Assembly: GCA_963815195.1 (NCBI GenBank)
Contig: CAWFGE010000015.1
Location: 384,001 to 448,000, forward strand
Source of the DNA: an uncultured Planctomycetaceae bacterium
GTDB lineage: Bacteria > Planctomycetota > Planctomycetia > Planctomycetales > Planctomycetaceae
DNA: 64,000 bases
Direction: 5' to 3'
The position numbers and the translations under genes were made by a program. Below are positions 4,053-29,900 of this stretch, one piece after another (position 1 is the stretch's first letter; every line of letters starts with the position of its first letter). The notes under the pieces are model-generated. The model was given only the letters and a program-made list of their open reading frames with translations. It searched no databases and was not told where the DNA came from.

Positions 4053-4116
4053 TCTGCCGCAAACGTGAGCGGCTGGTGCTAGCCGCCGGTCTTGGTCTTG
4101 ACGATGCCAAAATCGC
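4053..4116. repeat. REP-like repeat block A, truncated copy
   Basis: tctgccgcaaacgtgagcggctgg...gccaaaatcgc is repeated almost identically at 5369-5433. This copy lacks the second arm. Confidence 0.85.
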
Positions 4117-4242
4117 CGGGTGCCACTGGCAGTTTGCTGCCAGTGTTTTCCTCAGATCACATTCCAGTTTGATGGGAGCGTTCGTCAGCCTACTCCGTAA
4201 AAGCACTGGCAACAAGTTGCCAGTGGCACCCGAAAGATTTCT
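4114..4242. repeat. REPIN family B (inverted GGGTGCCACTGGCA..TGCCAGTG hairpins), copy 1
   Basis: Two inverted palindromic arms. This 129-bp block is directly repeated at 5243-5371 with one substitution (agtttgct vs agcttgct). Confidence 0.9.
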
Positions 4243-4323
4243 TATTGAGAGGACAACGAATTAAACTAACAGTGCCACCCCGCCGGGAAGCCCCCTTATG
4301 GAATCAAAAAGCCGCCCTTACAC

Positions 4324-5217
4324 TTACTTACGAGCTTGTTTTCTGGAAATCGCTTGGCGAACAAGCTCGTCTTTGTCTCCTTGGAGCCGGTCGACCATTT
4401 CTTGGGTGCGAAATTCCGAATGTTGGCTGAGAATCTCGGCGACATAGAGGCGGACCCACCATTCGTTATCCTTAGACAACTCGTCAAGCGCCGCAACGGC
4501 GTCCCGGCTCGCCTCTGTGAGTTTGCCTTTCTTGTTGAATCGTTTGAGCGCTAGCACATGACGCACGGAGTACTCCGCCCATCGGATCGCCCGCGTTCGA
4601 TCCGTTTCTGGACCACTGTAGTAGGCCTTCGTCATTGTCAAAAGTGCAGCCCCCGGTCCCTTTCGATAAAGAAATTCAACGGCATTCCTCGGCGGCAATT
4701 CCCCTTGGTCGGCGTAGCCCCTCAAGTAGATGTATTTAAAGCCGTGCTGTTCGCGAAAGCCCGGCTCCATTTCCACGATTAAGCGTTCGAGATTTATCCG
4801 GAACAGTTCGTCCTCGGCTCCCACATAGGGCAAAAGTGCGGAGAGAATCTGCCCCTCGCTGATCCCCAAAAATTGGATAATTATTCCCGGTGCCATCCCC
4901 TCTTGGACATCCTTTCCTCGGCTCAAGTAGTAAACGAGATTCGGGACCAACTTGCTGTAATTCTTGCCACCGCGCTTCGTAAGGAGATCCAGAGTCTCAA
5001 AAAAGGCCTCGCCCTCTTTTTTTCCTCCTGTAGTATACGCAACTTTGTTGATCAGCTTCTGAGTCTCCGGGTCCGGCTCGAAAGTGATTTTCATTTTCGT
5101 GGGCGGATCCGCAAGAGAGATGCTACTCATCACGATCAACCCCAGCATTAGCCAAAGTGACAGTAATCGGGACGATCTCGTGCAGTAATCAAGGCACAAA
5201 CCATTTCGCGAGTTCAT
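4324..5217 (-). CDS. Secreted hypothetical protein with C-terminal HEAT-like repeat (AT-richer cargo gene, possibly immunity-like)
   Basis: GGGGAG RBS before the ATG at 5217, signal peptide (LLSLWLMLGLIVMSSISLA), HEAT-like WWVRLYVAEIL...DELVRQA. Confidence 0.75.
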   Translation of the reverse strand: MNSRNGLCLDYCTRSSRLLSLWLMLGLIVMSSISLADPPTKMKITFEPDPETQKLINKVAYTTGGKKEGEAFFETLDLLTKRGGKNYSKLVPNLVYYLSRGKDVQEGMAPGIIIQFLGISEGQILSALLPYVGAEDELFRINLERLIVEMEPGFREQHGFKYIYLRGYADQGELPPRNAVEFLYRKGPGAALLTMTKAYYSGPETDRTRAIRWAEYSVRHVLALKRFNKKGKLTEASRDAVAALDELSKDNEWWVRLYVAEILSQHSEFRTQEMVDRLQGDKDELVRQAISRKQARK

Positions 5218-5242
5218 ATAAATCTCCCCAGTCAACGGTCGA

Positions 5243-5371
5243 CGCCGGGTGCCACTGGCAGCTTGCTGCCAGTGTTTTCCTCAGATCACATTCCAGTTTG
5301 ATGGGAGCGTTCGTCAGCCTACTCCGTAAAAGCACTGGCAACAAGTTGCCAGTGGCACCCGAAAGATTTCT
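5243..5371. repeat. REPIN family B, copy 2
   Basis: Direct repeat of 4114-4242. Confidence 0.9.
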
Positions 5372-5467
5372 GCCGCAAACGTGAGCGGCTGGGCGCTAGC
5401 CGCCGGTCTTGGTCTTGACGATGCCAAAATCGCATCATCGAAGCCGGAGGCTAGCGCCTACTGCTCA
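5369..5467. repeat. REPIN family A, full copy
   Basis: Arms tgagcggctgggcgctagccgccgg (5382-5406) and ccggaggctagcgcctactgctca (5444-5467) form an imperfect inverted repeat. Confidence 0.75.
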
Positions 5468-22139: not shown

Positions 22140-22426
22140 GGACGGACCTCGGATCAAGCTCTGCGGAAGCCTGAGTTTCTGGGTGAGAGGACGTAGATAA
22201 AGTCATCATTCTACCCCCAAGGCGGTATCTTTTGGCGAATATCACGCCGCATCCCGGAATTCTTCCCATTCCTTCAGCGACGTGAAAAGTCGTGGCCAGA
22301 CGCGCGTCATAGCCGCATACCCGTGAATCGTGGCCGCTCCCCATTGAATGCGAACAGATCGTGAGGGACATCGGCGGGGCGGCATTTATGGCCCTGGCAA
22401 AAATCCGTCAAACGGATGAACTGTGT

Positions 22427-22448
22427 GTGCCACTGGCTCTGCCAGTGC
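22427..22448. repeat. REP-like palindrome (family B related)
   Basis: gtgccactggctctgccagtgc. Confidence 0.65.
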
Positions 22449-22582
22449 GTTTTTGAGACAATCGTTGAGACGAAGCTCGGCTGGGATCGTGTTCTGCTTC
22501 GGAGACAATCTGCTGTTGTTGGGAGCAAGAAATCAACAAGCCCTAATCGCACGAACACTTCACCAAGGCGCTGGCAGCTTCC

Positions 22583-22700
22583 GTAGGGCCGGCTCCCGCC
22601 TGCCTTCCTTTGGTGGTACGATTTGAGGATGCCCAATTATCGTCGGGCCCTCCAGCGACGCTATTACGAATCTCAAAAGGAAGGCTGCCCTACACTTACT
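22583..22700. repeat. GTAG-type REPIN family D, copy 1, with RAYT-like start (MPNYRRA)
   Basis: Left arm gtagggccggctcccgcctgccttcctt, truncated right arm aaggaaggctgccctac, then acttact. GAGG followed by ATGCCCAATTATCGTCGGGCC at 22629-22649. Confidence 0.75.
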
Positions 22701-22710
22701 AAGAGTCTTT

Positions 22711-22830
22711 CGGGTGCCACTGGCAACTTGTTGCCAGTGCTTTCCAGCAGCATGGAATCGGGGGGCGTTTCAAAACTCGCTTGGTTCATACGATTCACAC
22801 TGGCAGGCAAGCTGCCAGTGGCACCCGGCG
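22711..22830. repeat. REPIN family B, inverted orientation, different spacer
   Basis: Arms cgggtgccactggcaacttgttgccagtg and cactggcaggcaagctgccagtggcacccggcg. Fused via ggcg to a family-D arm ending at 22844. Confidence 0.8.
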
Positions 22831-22849
22831 GGAGCCTGCCTTACATCTA

Positions 22850-22902
22850 CTGCCCACCGATTATCAAACAGCTTCGAGAATGGTGGGCGATGCCCACCCT
22901 AC
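22850..22902. repeat. GTAG-type REP (GTAGGGTGGGCA..TGCCCACC family E)
   Basis: ctgcccacc ... ggtgggcgatgcccaccctac. The same family occurs at 26978-27047 and 29875-29897. Confidence 0.7.
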
Positions 22903-22908
22903 ACGACT

Positions 22909-23012
22909 CCACACAGGATTACACCGTCGATGAACAAGGCAATTTTGATCCTCAATTCGAGAAATTCAAAATGGACAATTTGAAGATCATTCGCTCAATC
23001 CTTCAACCTTAA
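22909..23012 (+). pseudogene. Start-less C-terminal gene tail (possible toxin tip)
   Basis: AT-rich open frame DYTVDEQGNFDPQFEKFKMDNLKIIRSILQP* begins just after a REP and stops just before the RBS of the next gene. Confidence 0.4.
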
Positions 23013-23026
23013 ATCTGGAGAACAAG

Positions 23027-23951
23027 ATGTTTCGATTTAGCCTTCTCACAATAACCGTATTTGGTTTGATGGTCGCCCCGGCCAAGTGCGAAGATCCTAA
23101 ACTCGAATTAAAGCTCTCCGTTTCCAAGAGCGAAATCGTTCAATTGGAGCCAATTGTTCTAACAGTCTCTGTGCAAAATCTGTCGAAAGAACCTCAAAAA
23201 ATTTATCCGATATTTGATCCAGATGCACATTACCTAAAGATTTTCTTAACAACGGACGAAGGAAAGACCTCTTGGGTACGTTCAGGACTAATTAGCGATA
23301 TTTCCTGCAAGCCATACACGTTTTCTCCAAAGGACGTGATCCGCTATAGGCTGATGCTTTCGGGACAACCCAAGGACTGGACGGATAGGCCGGGCGAGTA
23401 TAAATTGCACATTACGTTTAGTTGTCTCAAAGACGCCAAACCGCTGGAATCCAAGCCGGTGAAGTTGACCGTCAAACCGGCGGAAGGGGTCGATAAAGAG
23501 GCTCTGGATCGGTTTCGCGGGTATCCGCAAGCCGAGTTTCTCGCCAGGGGATCGACAGCCGAGGCCATCGCTGAACAATTTCGGTTCGTGATCCGAAAAT
23601 TTCTCGAACGATCTTTATACCCCGTGGTGTTATTACATCCTGGGCTGGGCCGCGCAAAACGACGACTTTGCCTCACAGGAGTCAAAAGCAGATGCTGCCA
23701 GAGATTATTATGGAAGGCTTCTCAAGGAATATCCGAAATTCCCCATGAAGACCGAAGTGGAATACGAAATGGCCCGCGAGTTATTGCGGCTGGGAAAGGA
23801 TGATGAGGCAGCCATCGACCAAATCGAAAGCCTTGTCAACAAACATAAAGACCTCAATGTGTTTCGGGATGCTAGTTTCACATTAAATTCATTCCGTGAA
23901 AGAGGCAGAATCGCCCCCGCAGAAGAATTGCCGCCCCACTATCCGCAATAA
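23027..23951 (+). CDS. Secreted Ig-like + TPR-like protein (possible immunity/accessory protein), frameshift at about 23600
   Basis: GGAG RBS, signal peptide, beta-rich N-terminal domain. Removing one T gives KFSNDLYTPWCYYILG...YYGRLLKEYPKF, which joins ORF 23745..23951. Confidence 0.7.
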
Positions 23952-24153
23952 CCCGAAACCGCCATGTCTCCCCACGGCCTCAAAGGTCGTGAGGATTCTT
24001 CTTCAGAAAGAATTGGACTCGTCCCGAATCCGAGGTTATAGTGAAGACGACATGGGAATTTTACTGCACTGGAAATGCACGCAATGGGTGCCAGAAGGGG
24101 CAAAATCAAGCCGATGCGAGCGAATGCGAGTTGCACATCTAAGCCTAGAAAAC

Positions 24154-24302
24154 AGTAAGTGTAGGGCAGGCTCCTGCCTGCCTTCCTTAACAGCATTTCC
24201 CGACTATGTGGAAACCTTCAACCGGGGACGTGGGCTCGACGATCAATGGGCGTCCTCGCATCCAACCGAAGGAAGGCAGGCGGGAGCCTGCCCTACTCGG
24301 CT
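24154..24302. repeat. GTAG-type REPIN family D, copy 2
   Basis: Arms gtagggcaggctcctgcctgccttcctt (24161) and aaggaaggcaggcgggagcctgccctac (to 24296), then tcggct. The minus-strand interior reads TPIDRRAHVPG. Confidence 0.85.
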
Positions 24303-24884
24303 GGGCGGCCATTTCTAGCGCTCGAGGCACCTTCAACAGACTTGACAACGGCTCCAAAGCTTGGGAGTGTACCACGGGTTCGTCAAAAGTTTGACGCCAC
24401 ACAACTCAGCGAAGAAGCGGTCGACATTGCAATTGCGAAGTCGATCCGCCGAAAATCGGGGGCAACCGGCAACTCATCAAGACAAATTGTAGCAACACAG
24501 GATCAAGCCGAATTCATTTTGAAGAAAATGACCGTATGGCGTAGAAATGTGCATGCCGAGAATCCACATTTGGCGTCCTTGCCTTCCAACGTTAAAGGCA
24601 CAATCCTGCATAGTTCCGTATCGAAAAGGATGAGGCGACTAAATGTTGCTGGCTTACGGATTAATGAAAGGTTGTACTCACCGTTCCATGCACCCGGCAC
24701 GAGTCAGTATCGGAGTCCCATAACCGGTCAACCCTACACTTACCGAATTCCCGACTTTAGGATGCAACCTACTATCTTCGATATCAAGCCGAAAGGAACT
24801 CCGCTCACGGGTCCTCAAGTCGATGACTTCATGTCATTTGGTAACACCAATGACATTCGATTTATCTATTACAGACCATTTTGA
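24303..24884 (+). pseudogene. Orphan polymorphic-toxin C-terminal domain, PD-(D/E)xK restriction-endonuclease fold
   Basis: Open frame starting at the REPIN edge with no evident native start. Basic sequence with H...RIPD...IFDIK...Q motif. Confidence 0.65.
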
Positions 24885-24889
24885 TTGAG

Positions 24890-25297
24890 ATGAATAAAAT
24901 GCTGACCCGAGCTGAAATATTGAAAATGCTTGTTGGTTTGAAAGAGGTCAACGACATTGACCTGCTAATGGATGATGACATATTGAATGCCAGTTGCATT
25001 GAATCAGACAAGCCAACCGTTCGAGCTATGGCTACCATCATCGACCAGATCTACAACGACTTCGACTACGAGTCAAGTCCTGAGTTTTTGCAGAAGATCG
25101 AGGGCAAGTCCGAGCAAGTGCAAGCCATGCATCGAAGGTTGCTTAACGAGGAAAAGCTCAAGCAGGCAGGAAAGCGACTTGGCGAATCGCTAACGGCCAT
25201 TTTGGATTCAGAAGATGCCTTTAATCTCGTGACTGTTGCTCATCATGACCGATTGGAGGCACTAAAGGAACTAGCAAAGTCACTATCTGAAACGTAG
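24890..25297 (+). CDS. Putative cognate immunity protein
   Basis: Acidic ~135-aa ORF immediately after the nuclease stop, with the same AT-richer composition. Confidence 0.6.
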   Translation: MNKMLTRAEILKMLVGLKEVNDIDLLMDDDILNASCIESDKPTVRAMATIIDQIYNDFDYESSPEFLQKIEGKSEQVQAMHRRLLNEEKLKQAGKRLGESLTAILDSEDAFNLVTVAHHDRLEALKELAKSLSET

Positions 25298-25627
25298 GTT
25301 CATTGCCGTTGCCCGTGTGTGCCCGTCTTAATTCTGATCGCATTCGTTGCCGAATTAACGCTGTAGGGGTTTTGGCTTGTTGATTGCCGTTTTGCCGAAT
25401 TGTTGCGAATTCTGGAGAGGGTGGGTGCGATGGTCTTGGACAACTCGCATCTTGCGTTGCTGTTCGTTGGTCGTTGGTCGCGGACAGAAGGTCACCCGCG
25501 CGCCACTCGCACATGTTCCACCACATCCTCCCGCACGCCCTCGCAAACCAAGCGAACGCCCGCAGGCAACCCAGAAGCCACCATCCAAAGCCCGCCAGCA
25601 TCCGTGCCCCCATACTGCCATTCCTCC

Positions 25628-25951
25628 TGTTCGGCGACGATTGGTTTTCCACTTTAGCGGCGATTAGAATTTCTGCCGAGTCGGTGAATTAACGCTCCGA
25701 AGGTGCCTGTGAGTCTTTGCCAGATTTGGCTTCTTTTGCCGTTTCCACGCGGTAGCTGGGGACGTTCAATTCCAGGATGACGCTGTGGTGGACTAGGCGG
25801 TCGATGGCCGCGGCGGTCGTCATCGCGTCCTTGAAGATTTGGTCCCACTTGCTGAAGGCCAGGTTGCTCGTCAAGAGCACGCTGCCGCGTTCGTAGCGTT
25901 CGGCCAACAGCGTAAACAGCACTTCCATCTCCTCGCGACTTTGCTGCACAT
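25628..25951 (-). mobile_element. IS21-family remnant (right end plus 3' part of istB)
   Basis: The istB tail is followed on the minus strand by attctaatcgccgctaaagtggaaaaccaatcgtcgccgaaca, an IS21-style repeated end finishing in CA. Confidence 0.7.
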
Positions 25952-25958
25952 AGCCGAG
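25689..25958 (-). pseudogene. istB: IS21 helper ATPase, C-terminal fragment
   Basis: LGYVQQSREEMEVLFTLLAERYERGS..TSNL..W..IF..AAIDRLVHH..SYR. Truncated at the REPIN just after the expected Walker B. Confidence 0.9.
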
Positions 25959-26096
25959 TAGGGCCGGCTGTGCCGGCCTTTTGTTTTTGACACAACGATT
26001 TTTCTCGCACCAAATGGCCGGCATACCCAGCCGCCAATTGGGCATAAGTATGATTCCCTTCGTCGAAAAGGCCGGCACAGCCGGCCCTACTCGGCT
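25952..26096. repeat. GTAG-type REPIN family C, copy 1 (145 bp)
   Basis: Perfect terminal inverted repeats agccgagtagggccggctgtgccggcctttt / aaaaggccggcacagccggccctactcggct. Identical copies at 29083-29354. Confidence 0.95.
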
Positions 26097-26821
26097 TATT
26101 TGGCATCCGGCAAAAGCGTTTTGGCCCCTGTTTCGATCTTCTTCAAAGTGAAAACAAACGTCGTCGTGCGGGGACGATTGGGATTGAGCAAATCTTGAAA
26201 CTCCACCTTCGCGGCAAGCAGCCCCGTGGGAACTTTCCCGTGGGACCAGAATTGATAGTGGCATTTTGCGGATTGCTGGCCGTCTTGAAAGGTCTTTAGG
26301 GCCTTGGTGCCGGCTTTTGCGACGAGTTTTCCCGATTGATACTCGACAGTCTTCGCCTCGTTGAGTTCCGACATTTCTTTGAAAGCATTCGGGAGAAAAA
26401 ACGCCGCCAGATAAGCATCCTTGGTCTTGGCAAAATTCTGTTCGACGCGTCGTGCTTTAAGCGAAGTTCCTCCAACCCAAATTCGCTTGATGCCATCCAG
26501 GGACGACTTGCCGTTGCCAATCTGTTGCTCGGAAACCAGGATTTTTTGAACCATGTGGACGATCGGTTTGCCTTCATTGAGATCGCGAATCACAAATTCC
26601 AGCCATCGGCAAGGCTCGCCGTCTTCAGTGGTGCGGTTGAGCGTCTTGACAATCAACTCGGCCACCATGGGATCCTTCTGGCCCTCGCCTTTGAGTTCGA
26701 GATGGTAATAAACCGCCTCGCCTTCTTTGGGCAATCGCTGCACCAGAAAATTCGCAAAAGCCGAGTTCGTATGTCCCGCGGCAGCGAGGAGCACAACAAG
26801 TTTAAGGAGATTTCGCATCAT
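26096..26821 (-). CDS. Secreted hypothetical protein
   Basis: 241-aa ORF with a signal peptide (ending SAFA). Its TAA stop abuts the REPIN edge. Confidence 0.75.
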   Translation of the reverse strand: MMRNLLKLVVLLAAAGHTNSAFANFLVQRLPKEGEAVYYHLELKGEGQKDPMVAELIVKTLNRTTEDGEPCRWLEFVIRDLNEGKPIVHMVQKILVSEQQIGNGKSSLDGIKRIWVGGTSLKARRVEQNFAKTKDAYLAAFFLPNAFKEMSELNEAKTVEYQSGKLVAKAGTKALKTFQDGQQSAKCHYQFWSHGKVPTGLLAAKVEFQDLLNPNRPRTTTFVFTLKKIETGAKTLLPDAK

Positions 26822-26860
26822 CGGGCCTTTCGCAAGAGAGTATTCCGGTTTTATCGAAGA

Positions 26861-26977
26861 TTAAGCGAATATGAGCCTTCCACGCGGCGTAGGTATCGGA
26901 CGGCCGAGTTCCTTTGCCGTCTCAATCCACTCCCGGATGACGACTTCCATATTCGCGAGCGCCTCCTGGTAAGTTTC
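26861..26977 (-). pseudogene. hicB: HicB-family antitoxin, C-terminal fragment
   Basis: ETYQEALANMEVVIREWIETAKELGRPIPTPRGRLIFA. The N-terminus is replaced by a REP. Confidence 0.8.
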
Positions 26978-27047
26978 GTAGGGTGGGCACTGCGGTGGGC
27001 ACTGCCCACCAATTCTAAAAAACTCCGATTGGTGGGCGGTGCCCACC
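26978..27047. repeat. REP doublet family E, right arm interrupted by IS
   Basis: gtagggtgggcactgcggtgggcactgcccacc ... ggtgggcggtgcccacc, followed directly by the IS left end. Confidence 0.8.
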
Positions 27048-28515
27048 CACCCCTTTCAACATGTTAGTTTTTTGCTATAAGTCGCTTCTACAGGGATTGT
27101 TGTATCAAACCTTATGGAGGCGGCAAGGATGTGGCCCGACGCTGTGCTTGATCGTTTTGTGGAACAATGTCCAGCAGCAGTGATGGTTCGAGCGACGCTC
27201 GAGAATCTTGTGTCGCCGGATCGCCTGGATGAGATTTTCGCCGACGCTTCGCAGAGACAATACGAGAAAGAATTGCTGTTTTCGCAAGTGGTGGCCCTGA
27301 TGATGGGCGTGGCGACGCGGACGCACAAGTCGGTCCATGCCGGGTACTTGGCGGCCAAGGAGCAACTGGCGGTTTCGCCGGCCGCACTTTATGGCAAGTT
27401 GAACCGTCTGGAACCCGGCCTTTCGGCGACGATGATCCGGGAAACGAGCCAGGACGCGGCTCAAGTCATCGATTCCATGCCGGGAGCGTGCCGCGAACTT
27501 TTGCCGGGCTATCACGTGCAGTATTTGGATGGGAATCATTTGGCGGCGACTGAGCATCGGCTGGCGGAATTGCGCGTCACGCGGGAAGGCCCTTTGCCCG
27601 GCCAGACCTTGGCGCTTCTGGACGCGCAGCGGGATCTGATTTCGGAACTGCTCCCGTGTGAAGACGGGCATGCTCAGGAACGTTCGCTTCTGCCGGAGCT
27701 TCTGGAATGGATCCGGGCCGAGACGGTGACAATCGCCGACCGGAACTTCTGCACGACCAAGTTTCTGTTTGGAATTGTCAAGCAGTCGGCCTACTTTGTC
27801 ATTCGCCAACACGCTTCGACACTCACCTGGAAACTCGTCGGTCGCCGGAAACGCATCGGACGCATCGAAACGGGTGTTGTTTTCGAGCAGTCGGCCGAGC
27901 TGTCCCAGGGTGAAGAGACGTTGCGAGTCCGGCGGATCACCATCCAATTGGATACGCCCACAGAGAATGGTGACACTGAGATTCACATCCTGACCAACTT
28001 GCCTGTCAAAGTCGCCAATGCGCAAAAAGTGGCTTTTCTGTATCGCAAGCGCTGGACGATTGAAGAAGCCTTCCAAACTCTGACCGAGGTGTTGCGCTGC
28101 GAAGTGGAGACGCTGGGCTACCCCAAGGCGGCGCTGTTCGCCTTCGCCACGGCGGTTTTGGCTTATAACACCTATGCCGTGGTGAAAGCGGCGCTGCGAT
28201 CGGTTCACGGTGAAGAAACGATCGATGAAGAACTGTCGGACTACCACCTGACGCAGGACGTGACTGCCACGACGGTGGGCATGAACATTGCCGTGGACGC
28301 CGAAGCCTGGCAACACTATCAAATCATGTCTGCTGGAAAACTTGCGAGCGAGTTGGTGCGACTTGCTACACGCATCGACTTGACGCGTTACCCCAAAAAG
28401 AAACGCGGGCCGAAAAAACCACAGCCTCGAAAAAAGAGCGGCAAACGGAATCACCATATCTCCACCGCGCGAACTCTGGCCAAATCCAGGGGTAAGTGAC
28501 ATGTTGAAAGGGGTG
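27048..28515 (+). mobile_element. IS4-family insertion sequence (1468 bp)
   Basis: Perfect 17-bp terminal inverted repeats CACCCCTTTCAACATGT (27048-27064 and 28499-28515). No matching flanking direct repeat. Confidence 0.9.
27114..28499 (+). CDS. IS4-family DDE transposase
   Basis: YLDGN, IADRNF and YRKRWTIEEAF (YREK-like) motifs, with a basic C-terminal tail. Confidence 0.9.
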   Translation: MEAARMWPDAVLDRFVEQCPAAVMVRATLENLVSPDRLDEIFADASQRQYEKELLFSQVVALMMGVATRTHKSVHAGYLAAKEQLAVSPAALYGKLNRLEPGLSATMIRETSQDAAQVIDSMPGACRELLPGYHVQYLDGNHLAATEHRLAELRVTREGPLPGQTLALLDAQRDLISELLPCEDGHAQERSLLPELLEWIRAETVTIADRNFCTTKFLFGIVKQSAYFVIRQHASTLTWKLVGRRKRIGRIETGVVFEQSAELSQGEETLRVRRITIQLDTPTENGDTEIHILTNLPVKVANAQKVAFLYRKRWTIEEAFQTLTEVLRCEVETLGYPKAALFAFATAVLAYNTYAVVKAALRSVHGEETIDEELSDYHLTQDVTATTVGMNIAVDAEAWQHYQIMSAGKLASELVRLATRIDLTRYPKKKRGPKKPQPRKKSGKRNHHISTARTLAKSRGK

Positions 28516-28590
28516 ATTGACCGCATCGTAACTGTAGCTGTACCGGCCCGTGGCATCGCTCATGAGGGTTCGGTTGCCGACGCTATCGAA
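28516..28590 (-). pseudogene. Rhs/YD-repeat fragment
   Basis: Translates as FDSVGNRTLMSDATGRYSYSYDAVN and is cut exactly by the IS right end. Confidence 0.75.
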
Positions 28591-28665
28591 GGGTGTCCTA
28601 ATTCCGAACGCCCTCTTGGCATCTTTTGGCCAGCACAGCTTTACCCGACAATTCTGATTGGCCCT

Positions 28666-28959
28666 TCAGAAATTTTGGTAACCAATAGTTCTGAGTATCT
28701 CCATATCAAGCAAAAAAAAGACGCGTAGCCAATAAAATGGCTTTACAATGATACTGTCAGGAAAATAAGCCACCCACCAAATCACTGGTTGGTATAACAA
28801 AACCCACCAAGTGGGAGGGGCAAATCCAAAAAAACCACCTTGGCCCTCTGGGACGATTAACCCTTCCATATCAGCCCAACATCGAAGAGTTGGAGCTGCA
28901 CTAGCAAGATAGAGGAACGCAAATACAGAAAAATCCAACCACGGAAGAGACAATACCAT
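28666..28959 (-). CDS. Small AT-rich membrane protein (possible immunity protein)
   Basis: Hydrophobic, Trp-rich 97-aa ORF between a truncated gene tail (29082-29013) and an Rhs fragment. Start uncertain. Confidence 0.45.
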   Translation of the reverse strand: MVLSLPWLDFSVFAFLYLASAAPTLRCWADMEGLIVPEGQGGFFGFAPPTWWVLLYQPVIWWVAYFPDSIIVKPFYWLRVFFLLDMEILRTIGYQNF

Positions 28960-29082
28960 AGCAATACGAACAGCTTTCTCACGCTTTACATCCTTCTGCT
29001 TATTGGGTGAACCTATTCCTTCGGTTCGGTAAGCCCTACTTTAATCGCCAAGTTCTGTTTTGTTGTGGAAATGTTTTGAGCG

Positions 29083-29354
29083 AGCCGAGTAGGGCCGGCT
29101 GTGCCGGCCTTTTGTTTTTGACACAACGATTTTTCTCGCACCAAATGGCCGGCATACCCAGCCGCCAATTGGGCATAAGTATGATTCCCTTCGTCGAAAA
29201 GGCCGGCACAGCCGAGTAGGGCCGGCTGTGCCGGCCTTTTGTTTTTGACACAACGATTTTTCTCGCACCAAATGGCCGGCATACCCAGCCGCCAATTGGG
29301 CATAAGTATGATTCCCTTCGTCGAAAAGGCCGGCACAGCCGGCCCTACTCGGCT
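29083..29354. repeat. REPIN family C, tandem dimer (127-bp period)
   Basis: A copy lacking its last 18 bp (29083-29209) is fused to a full copy (29210-29354). Both are identical to 25952-26096. Confidence 0.95.
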
Positions 29355-29356
29355 GG

Positions 29357-29482
29357 TTACAAGATATGATGAATAACCACATAGGACATGAATGCGCAGG
29401 TAAAGTCGCGTTCGCTATGGCCCCTTGGGGTTTATTTAAATGTATAACGTGTGATGATTGCTGTAAAACGAAGAGGAGATAA
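29357..29482 (+). pseudogene. Cys-rich C-terminal tail of a probable Rhs-type toxin
   Basis: LQDMMNNHIGHECAGKVAFAMAPWGLFKCITCDDCCKTKRR* is open from the REPIN edge and has a DxxNNxxG..C..CxxCC pattern. Confidence 0.5.
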
Positions 29483-29485
29483 TGA

Positions 29486-29806
29486 ATGCCGAAAGGATCT
29501 GTAACTAACTCGCATTTGCTGAAGTGTTACAGCATCACCTTTTTAATCATAGGTGCGTGCCTTTTGCTCTATTCTGTTTTGGGAAGCCCGTTGTACACTT
29601 ACGCATTAGCCGAACTGATCGAAGAACGTATTTCACAAAACTCTAACCCAAACGATACACGAATGACCATTTGGGAGCTTCTTTCAGCGAGGAACTTTGT
29701 TGGGAATATAGTAATGGGAGTTTCCGGAGGATTAATCTCCTTATTGTCAGTTTTATCATACTGGACGATACGGCAACTGGGCCAATCTGGACAGGAAGTG
29801 ACGTAG
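29486..29806 (+). CDS. Two-TM small protein (putative immunity protein)
   Basis: GAGGAG RBS, two hydrophobic segments, AT-rich, starts 3 bp after the tail stop codon. Confidence 0.65.
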   Translation: MPKGSVTNSHLLKCYSITFLIIGACLLLYSVLGSPLYTYALAELIEERISQNSNPNDTRMTIWELLSARNFVGNIVMGVSGGLISLLSVLSYWTIRQLGQSGQEVT

Positions 29807-29874
29807 CCTCGTGGTGCGGACCGATCCGACTACATCCTCACACCGCAATTGGTCCTCACAGCCTCGTAGGCTCC

Positions 29875-29897
29875 GGGCAGCGCGGTGCCCACCCTAC
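29875..29897. repeat. REP family E arm at the right border of the island
   Basis: gggcagcgcggtgcccaccctac, three bases from the stop of the PSD1 gene. Confidence 0.55.
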
Positions 29898-29900
29898 CTT

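Follow-up and report, generated by a model that had tools for sequence, protein, structure and literature searches.

An AT-richer interval in the DNA of an uncultured Planctomycetaceae bacterium is probably an island of unrelated DNA pieces that a REP-associated tyrosine transposase (RAYT) has fused, at CT dinucleotides, to the ends of REPINs, which are doublets of repetitive extragenic palindromic (REP) sequences. The window analyzed is a stretch of 64,000 nucleotides (G000:C15:384001-448000) from a draft genome of 8.87 Mb in 25 contigs (G000, contigs C1-C25), and the interval occupies 22.4-29.9 kb of it, between genes for a DUF2339 protein and a PSCyt/PSD1 protein. Its 500-bp bins have a GC fraction of 0.44-0.58, compared with ∼0.60, and its repeats belong to four REP families and a 145-bp REPIN. 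At 11 GTAG-type arm ends in the interval, a CT lies 4-5 nt beyond the arm and is followed by unrelated DNA. The cargo pieces at 22909 and 24303 start at the first bases after such CTs, as do those at 26971 (minus strand), 29082 (minus strand), 29355, and 25951 (minus strand); the arm at 29878-29897, next to the PSD1 stop codon, is without a CT at the usual spacing. Genome-wide, the join dinucleotides are fixed (CT in the GTAG families and, in most cases, CG in a second group), the flanks are unrelated, units are tandemly duplicated, copies of joined pieces are found at remote loci, and the cargo behind one anchor varies.

An earlier note on this DNA had described REP-bounded pieces in AT-richer DNA, with a recurring order of REP, start-less 3' tail, and intact downstream gene. 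The composition, the repeat families, and the cargo starts on REP ends agree with that description. It did not list an intact IS4-family insertion sequence (IS), next to which, and not next to a REP, the Rhs YD piece lies, and one of the genes it took to be intact (23027-23951) is frameshifted near 23600.

Dinucleotides at the REP joins

CT makes up 4.6% and CG 11.2% of dinucleotide positions in the background. At a fixed offset from the arm, CT is present at 35 of 38 ends of the 145-bp family and at 41 of 52 ends of family C, and CG is present at the ends of two families of a second group (38/44 and 11/11). Among 142 GTAG-type ends genome-wide, 23 are joined to DNA with an unbroken paralog, and in 22 of these 23 the paralog has a CT exactly at the join; in the second group, CG is common to the end and the paralog in 13 of 17 rows. 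The independent paralog rows include istB, two RAYT genes, an IS, an Rhs gene, and a core gene. For the 145-bp element (15 copies), 12 of 29 valid flanks have a paralog, and 10 of these 12 have CT at the join. In none of 10 cases was the other side of the paralog found on the opposite flank of the element, showing that its flanks are not the halves of one target.

Three further genomes of the same genus (G001, G002, and G003) were available for comparison, of which G001 is a sister species. At 22 G001 loci chosen around REP matches, 78 of 89 ends finish in CT when three offsets are allowed, and, with two same-unit rows excluded, 14 of 17 usable paralogs have the CT. A coding-frame score gave a call for only 52 of 184 joins, 29 of them away and 23 toward, and overlooked known tails, which makes it unsuitable as a measure of join polarity.

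The repeats themselves are palindromes with a GTAG or GTGG foot that occur as inverted doublets and in many copies, as REPs and REPINs do. They have no target duplication and their flanks are unrelated, which is not the pattern of miniature inverted-repeat elements moved by a DDE transposase. The CT cutting and joining without target duplication that characterizes REP/RAYT systems is present here as a genomic footprint only.

Duplications, remote copies, and variable cargo at the PSD1 anchor

A 317-bp unit on C12 is tandemly duplicated; it starts within a core gene, at a CT, and stops at the terminal CT of the REPIN that follows, and the product has the order REP, start-less tail, REP. The tandem double of the 145-bp REPIN in the interval (29083-29354) is the same type of event with a 127-bp unit, which starts at a CT within an arm and reaches as far as the terminal CT. 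Other copies lie at a distance from their source. A 326-bp copy (99.4% identical) of the 5' half of a RAYT gene is found on C20, where it follows a REPIN and starts at a CT. In G001, a 963-bp copy (98%) begins at a CT in a gene that we take from its sequence to be htpG and follows a REP on a different contig; the htpG locus itself is intact. The same genome has a 545-bp internal piece of topA (98%; the label comes from the PF13368 match of the ortholog-type gene in G000) flanked by two REPINs; each of its ends is at a CT, the two being on opposite strands, and one end has three additional bases. A whole RAYT cassette is also duplicated there, along with 190 bp of the tail of a neighboring gene. 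Because these remote 98-99% copies are found behind REP ends, deletion alone does not account for them, and capture does. A 2.3-kb duplication shared by C20 and C21 also begins at a CT; its other end is at an IS, and we did not include it among the captures.

The family D REP at 29878-29897 (minus strand) marks the 3' end of the PSD1 gene, where the array is anchored. Each of the four genomes of the genus has a REP at this end of its PSD1 ortholog, with unrelated cargo behind it. This array is 1.0 kb long in G002 and 2.5 kb long in G001, and both close on the same next gene, which in G000 is on C10, preceded by REP-bounded cargo. The earlier note had suggested a cross-strain comparison of the whole DUF2339-PSD1 interval, and variable REP-bounded cargo was indeed found at the PSD1 end. 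The DUF2339 side did not hold as part of a conserved interval, as the two genes are 4.6 kb apart in G001, with PSD1 inverted and three ordinary genes between them, two of which lie on other contigs in G000; no DUF2339 gene was found in G002 or G003. With that side unconserved, only the 3' end of PSD1 is an anchor.

A low-GC 1-kb flank is present in 16-62% of the copies of eight REP families of such islands; the random figure is 3.5%, and 15 other repeat families have 0-6%. The eight were selected from the window and from islands close to it, so this contrast is descriptive. These eight families also co-cluster (36-76% versus 7% at random), which the 15 other abundant families do not.

Two side observations concern rearrangement around REPs. 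The same REP-fused tail of 104 codons is present on two contigs (G000:C1:3890 and C21:251450). Between L013 and G000, which represent genus members at 85-88% identity, gene order breaks every 2-5 kb, and REP joins may contribute to such breaks within the genus.

RAYT genes associated with the island repeats

The G000 genome contains 14 RAYT-like matches, four of which are above the NF047646 cut-off. One intact RAYT (C12:908727-909341) scores 164 bits against a cut-off of 80 and encodes a protein with a DHLH motif, as listed for subclass 2.5 in the classes of Quentin et al. It is flanked by inverted arms that are identical to those of the 145-bp element, and the right part of that element matches the start region of the RAYT at 80%. 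Based on the identical arms and this match, the 145-bp REPIN (25952-26096 in the window; 31-bp arms; 15 copies at 97-100%) is a gutted, internally deleted derivative of the C12 RAYT cassette.

The island REP occurs in 10 of 61 genomes. In G001 and G003 it surrounds a close ortholog of this RAYT, so that an intact RAYT between the same inverted REPs is present in G000, G001, and G003, and G002 is without either. Related enzymes of E. coli and Stenotrophomonas perform CT cleavage and strand exchange in vitro (PMC8266576, PMC3333891). A second intact RAYT gene (C11:44433-45059) is flanked by CG-joining families; a previously unreported CG specificity is predicted for the second RAYT group. Other RAYT genes have been chopped by REP joins and persist as near-identical scattered fragments (C15:625671-626102, C13:936703-937155, C13:939208-939348, C20:247103-247360, and C10:219119-219361).

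Cargo of the island and its toxin and immunity content

The cargo of the interval is carried in five modules. The first part of the second in order (24303-24884, plus strand) is a C-terminal tip that lacks a start codon and comes from a Tox-REase-like Rhs polymorphic toxin; it is 64-65% identical to the last 165-190 amino acids of proteins of 2,290 and 6,073 amino acids. The tip has 21 homology hits, its relatives carry RHS Pfam repeats and an Rhs core, and an atlas places it near Tox-REase-9 (0.93); its predicted fold has a pLDDT of 41, and the alignment of the tips is without a conserved stretch. The gene that follows it is intact (24899-25297, plus strand), with 10 homologs and no family. 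In five of six loci with a full-length match to this gene, the same tip or a remnant of it is directly upstream, and because of this conserved position the gene is likely the cognate immunity gene of the tip. The pair at 24303-25297 thus has, as toxin-immunity pairs do, a toxin domain that forms the C terminus of large Rhs-type proteins.

The first module begins with the start-less 3' tail of a giant secreted protein (22909-23012, plus strand), which is 55% identical at the amino acid level to the end of a long open reading frame (ORF) at C14:8022-8114; in this paralog a zincin HExxH motif is located just upstream of the retained part. The partner gene (23027-23951, plus strand), which has a signal-peptide-like start, is 68% and 61% identical to one continuous ORF (C14:8147-9061) that follows the paralog of the tail on C14. 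Compared with that continuous paralog, the partner gene is frameshifted near 23600, a difference that may be real or a sequencing error. Elsewhere on the same contig as the window, L028 (G000:C15:246-253 kb) contains a zincin tail followed by tandem ankyrin-repeat genes that are cut by REPINs and an IS4.

The third module, on the minus strand, consists of the start-less 3' tail of a hicB-like antitoxin gene (26861-26971), which follows a CT and is 78% and 68% identical to full 70-amino acid genes of PF15919/PF21748, and an intact gene for a 241-amino acid secreted-type protein (26096-26821) that has two homologs and no family and whose stop codon overlaps the REPIN end. On the same strand, a 23-codon start-less tail with a hydrophobic 97-amino acid ORF (28666-29082) is followed by the YD piece, as would be expected in an Rhs orphan array; this module had no match in 200 genomes of the family or in the atlas. 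The last module (29355-29806, plus strand) is a 41-codon Cys-rich start-less tail with a hydrophobic 106-amino acid ORF, has no homolog, and likewise had no match in the 200 family genomes. In addition, a 3' stump of istB from an IS21 element (25619-25953, minus strand; PF01695, E 1.6e-22) is cut at a CT and is 98.5% identical to C14:127417-127751, where a CT is at the join, and an Rhs YD-repeat fragment (28516-28590, minus strand; PF05593, E 0.0047) is 89.6% identical in nucleotides to C15:300488-300564. The stump, the hicB tail, and the YD piece, which is 88% identical in amino acids to an Rhs gene on the same contig, are therefore real, as the earlier note had read them. Pfam and NCBIfam gave no family for most of the cargo in the window.

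The expectation that homologs of the cargo would lie at toxin loci is borne out for two of the five modules, which are a toxin-type tail plus a conserved next gene. A third is an antitoxin tail plus an orphan, and the other two are without informative relatives. Reading the modules as a toxin tip plus next gene consequently fits two of five and not all of them, and the pattern recurs at other islands: at least seven more REP-fused toxin-type tails exist in the genome, among them EndoU, Hint, Rhs, and HNH-like pieces that have small genes after them (the HNH match and one Hint match are weak). The islands also carry SUKH/SMI1, Imm22, MafI, DUF7674, and DUF4274 genes.

Proposed mechanism and alternative explanations

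The enzyme, the single-stranded intermediate, and the order of events that we infer are as follows. A RAYT encoded on another contig would act in trans, nicking single-stranded DNA after the CT of a REPIN end and after a distant CT, and the freed REPIN end would be joined to another piece of DNA. Units that extend from a random CT to the CT of a REP would be excised, copied, or pasted behind another REP; the remote copies do start at a CT and often end at the REP's own CT. Because REPs are often just downstream of genes, a start-less 3' tail plus a small next gene would be a natural product of such an event, so the recurring pattern is explained without invoking selection. Taken from Rhs or Hint toxin loci, pieces of this kind would contain a toxin tip and its immunity gene, and the arrays likely persist where the joins are harmless. 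Large regions rich in Hint and Rhs toxins and free of island REPs are present in G000 on C9 (105 kb), C14, C15:300-330 kb, and C10:447-482 kb; they are possible donor pools.

Several results weigh against a RAYT-built island. Donors of most of the cargo were not found, and many joins fit local deletion equally well, with IS4 and IS21 having also rearranged the interval. Most GTAG ends (119 of 142) have no paralog for comparison, the paralog rows are partly non-independent (several are other REP arms), two flanks of the 145-bp element with 81-82% paralogs show TT, and the G001 paralogs include two misses and one unclear case. Family B has CG in only ∼5 of 15 rows, and the CG specificity departs from the published guide rule (in which GTGG led to CC). 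In other genera, 17 of 30 sampled arms of the same REP end in CT, and the flanks are mostly of normal GC content. Within G000, only 32 of 321 low-GC regions are at an island REP (289 are without one), and just 3 of 25 SMI1, Rhs-core, or Hint matches are within 1 kb of such a REP, the other 22 being beyond that distance.

One alternative is that REPINs invaded pre-existing Rhs orphan arrays or other dispensable AT-rich DNA, where CT cuts by a RAYT only deleted DNA locally and captured nothing from afar. Large REP-free toxin loci do exist, the piece at 29082-28516 resembles part of an Rhs orphan array, ankyrin and SMI1 genes have lost their 3' ends in situ, and island REPs touch just a tenth of low-GC regions. 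This explanation is nevertheless improbable given that near-identical pieces of htpG, topA, and RAYT are found on other contigs, where they follow REP ends and start at a CT, that the CT-to-CT tandem duplications are gains, and that the cargo behind the PSD1 anchor is unrelated among four genomes and measures 1.0 kb, 2.5 kb, or more. Alternatively, capture by a RAYT could have been broad and followed by selection that keeps immunity genes against the toxins of neighbors, as the earlier note proposed. The presence of a tip with a conserved next gene twice in the window, the further REP-fused tails in the genome, and the lack of a paralog of the REase tip in G000 or 60 relatives would fit such an adaptive platform. 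Toxin and immunity families are, however, no more common near REPs than in other low-GC DNA, at 9 of 63 REP-adjacent low-GC ORFs (12 with ankyrins) versus 3-8 of 36 REP-free low-GC ORFs, a comparison that used 20 large REP-free low-GC regions, crude ORF calls, a small sample, differing thresholds, and some provisional family labels. The enrichment expected of a selected orphan-immunity array was thus not seen, and non-immunity cargo is plentiful (htpG, topA, istB, and RAYT, which are housekeeping genes or mobile-element debris). A frameshift affects one of the partner genes, a REP truncates another immunity-type gene, and orphan genes lose their upstream promoter context. We consider such an immunity-collecting platform unlikely.

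Ordinary debris of IS activity and homologous recombination, or an integron array that lacks an integrase (CALIN), with REPs as passengers in either case, could be suspected from the IS4 copy without target duplication and the IS21 stump in the interval, the intI gene and attC cassettes in the genome, and the shuffled gene order across the genus. It is contradicted by joins that fall at REP ends and share a family-specific dinucleotide with the unbroken paralog; in addition, a weak scan found no attC-type sites in the interval, and the pieces begin inside genes, unlike integron cassettes, which do not. We consider this source very improbable. Still harder to credit is an assembly artefact in which repeats misjoined unrelated contigs: the assembly is a 25-contig draft with some indels, and of six public read sets that contain this DNA, none of them recorded as RNA, the four that were mapped, at a depth of ∼3 over the interval, bridged no join, but misjoins are expected inside a repeat and not at a CT of unrelated single-copy DNA, and the same signature is present in the independently assembled sister genome G001.

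Capture by REP/RAYT elements into a variable array, as put forward in the earlier note, is supported by the CT and CG joins, the cognate intact RAYT, the remote near-identical copies, and the variable cargo at one anchor.

Relation to known systems

The array is a member of the REP/RAYT family and is integron-like in outcome only. The comparison with integrons drawn in the earlier note holds for a growing cassette array and fails for the chemistry. Integrons and the orphan or recombinase-associated immunity arrays of Rhs and contact-dependent inhibition (CDI) systems have variable cassettes at a fixed anchor and toxin tails followed by immunity genes, as is the case here. Unlike those arrays, this one has no attC site that we found, no tyrosine recombinase at the array, and no conserved Rhs core repeats between modules, and its cassettes start at random CT sites inside genes. 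Whole-gene cassettes joined at an attC/attI crossover, the mark of an integron, are not what the interval contains, as its pieces begin inside genes at a CT. The earlier note had seen no integrase or attC array; none was found in the interval by a weak attC scan that recovered one of two attC sites spotted by eye elsewhere, and the window has no intI, although intI (on C25) and attC cassettes do occur elsewhere in the genome. An integron integrase gene is at a contig end (G000:C25:20804-21541), and 3' stumps of intI with a promoter and an attI-like site, followed by attC cassettes, are at C21:244862-245059 and C18:170171-170386 and, in G001, at L158 and L164. In G001, an intI stump behind htpG has been copied to another contig, and the copy begins at a REP-CT join; REP capture can thus move integron platforms.

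IS200/IS605, IS91/ISCR, and Helitron elements use HUH single-strand chemistry, produce no target duplication, and capture adjacent DNA, all of which is likewise seen or proposed here. Here, by contrast, the enzyme would work on miniature repeats in trans, and only a dinucleotide would be required at the distant end. Capture of neighboring DNA by these three groups is named in PMC3333891.

The closest relatives are the REPtrons formed by REP/BIME (bacterial interspersed mosaic element) sequences and TnpA(REP), which, according to PMC3333891, PMC8266576, and PMC2817692, share GTAG hairpins, an HUH Y1 gene between inverted REPs, CT cutting, strand exchange, and tandem amplification. In contrast to REPtrons, the planctomycete system has genome-wide joins to non-REP DNA, multigene mosaic arrays with remote donors, REPIN copies that are not clean insertions, several RAYT/REP groups together (one of them CG-joining), and toxin tips with their next genes. 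The REPIN-RAYT systems of Pseudomonas and enterobacteria are similar in their non-autonomous REP doublets, single intact cognate RAYT, and joint loss of REP and RAYT, and are described in 10.1101/2021.07.10.451892 as vertically inherited and intergenic, with a benefit stated to be unclear. The planctomycete REPINs instead sit in accessory DNA, cut genes, and move DNA between loci. In picocyanobacteria, TnpA(REP) genes beside lanthipeptide genes led to a comparable proposal, the diversification of conflict-related genes; that work (10.1101/2020.03.09.984088) is based on co-location, and its authors withdrew the causal claim. Here, by comparison, join dinucleotides and donor copies are identified.

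The earlier note knew of no description of such capture. The mechanism and CT cleavage were proposed in 2011, when TnpA(REP) was suggested in PMC3333891 to be able to sequester neighboring genes or parts of them, as exemplified by codA-cynR and rayt pieces; sequestered genes are shown in Supplementary Figure S7 of that paper and Additional File 4 of PMC2817692, and PMC3333891 leaves open how often TnpA(REP) recombination occurs and what it produces in vivo. The in-genome footprint and the cassette arrays were not found in print: no report of genome-wide CT or CG joins to non-REP DNA, or of REP-built arrays of toxin-immunity genes or gene fragments, was found in literature that mostly lay outside subscription journals and REP supplements.

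G000 and its sister species keep a readable record in which the join sites are exact and donors and products can be recognized; the enzymes and substrates are named and open to assay. This record suggests REPINs as possible agents of gene shuffling, duplication, and collection, and points to a possible route for the spread of orphan immunity genes without Rhs core homology or an integrase. A more far-reaching proposal, that RAYT and REPIN form in these planctomycetes a dedicated gene-acquisition machine that splices single-stranded DNA, including incoming foreign DNA, to REPIN ends at enzyme-specific CT or CG sites and stockpiles functional immunity genes that act against the toxins of neighbors, is speculative and on balance unlikely. 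If it were true, such a machine would explain how hosts profit from REPIN-RAYT systems, which has long been sought, and integron-like arrays would have a second route, based on HUH chemistry.

Other repeats and the IS4 element of the interval

The left part of the interval is a series of abutting repeats. A remnant of another REP-family element (22389-22577) is 92% identical to C8:152738-152928, where a CT is at the join, and is cut at a CT by the arm of the next REPIN. That REPIN (22576-22700) is of the GTAG type and family C-like, with inverted arms at 22583-22614 and 22682-22700 and CT at both outer ends. It is followed by a family B REPIN of the CG-joining group (22711-22831; eight copies at 85-100%), the right end of which is joined to a family C arm fragment, and by a GTAG-type REP of family D (22881-22908, minus strand; hairpin z -3.9; terminal CT at 22907-22908). 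A GTAG-type REPIN of family C (24154-24302) has 28-nt arms, a fold z of -6.8, and CT at both outer ends. Pieces of dispersed repeats (25317-25626) have 78-86% matches on C15, C14, and C9.

A family D REPIN (26972-27047) is interrupted by the intact IS4-family element of 1,469 bp (27047-28515, plus strand), whose transposase (27114-28499) matches PF01609 and is below the cut-off of NF033592. The element has 15 copies in the genome and fills a fifth of the interval. Its copy in the interval is without a target duplication, and a duplication of 10-11 bp is present at 9 of 13 near-full copies, suggesting that IS4 also rearranged the interval. Copies are found in or beside family D REP arms at 27030-27047 of the window and at G000:C23:198128 and C13:376712, which suggests that IS4 targets REPs.

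Stop codons of cargo genes are located inside the GTAG-type foot or a few bases before it (25294-25297 and 29803-29806 in the window; L013:14287-14300). About 60 short repeat families of the genome, which include at least two associated with class 3 Y1 enzymes (C13:617 kb and C19:251 kb), keep to core DNA and do not behave as island repeats. A 36-bp repeat with 129 copies resembles a CRISPR repeat. Within the window, two more family B REPINs surround AT-rich genes at 4078-5461, forming a smaller island of the same kind.

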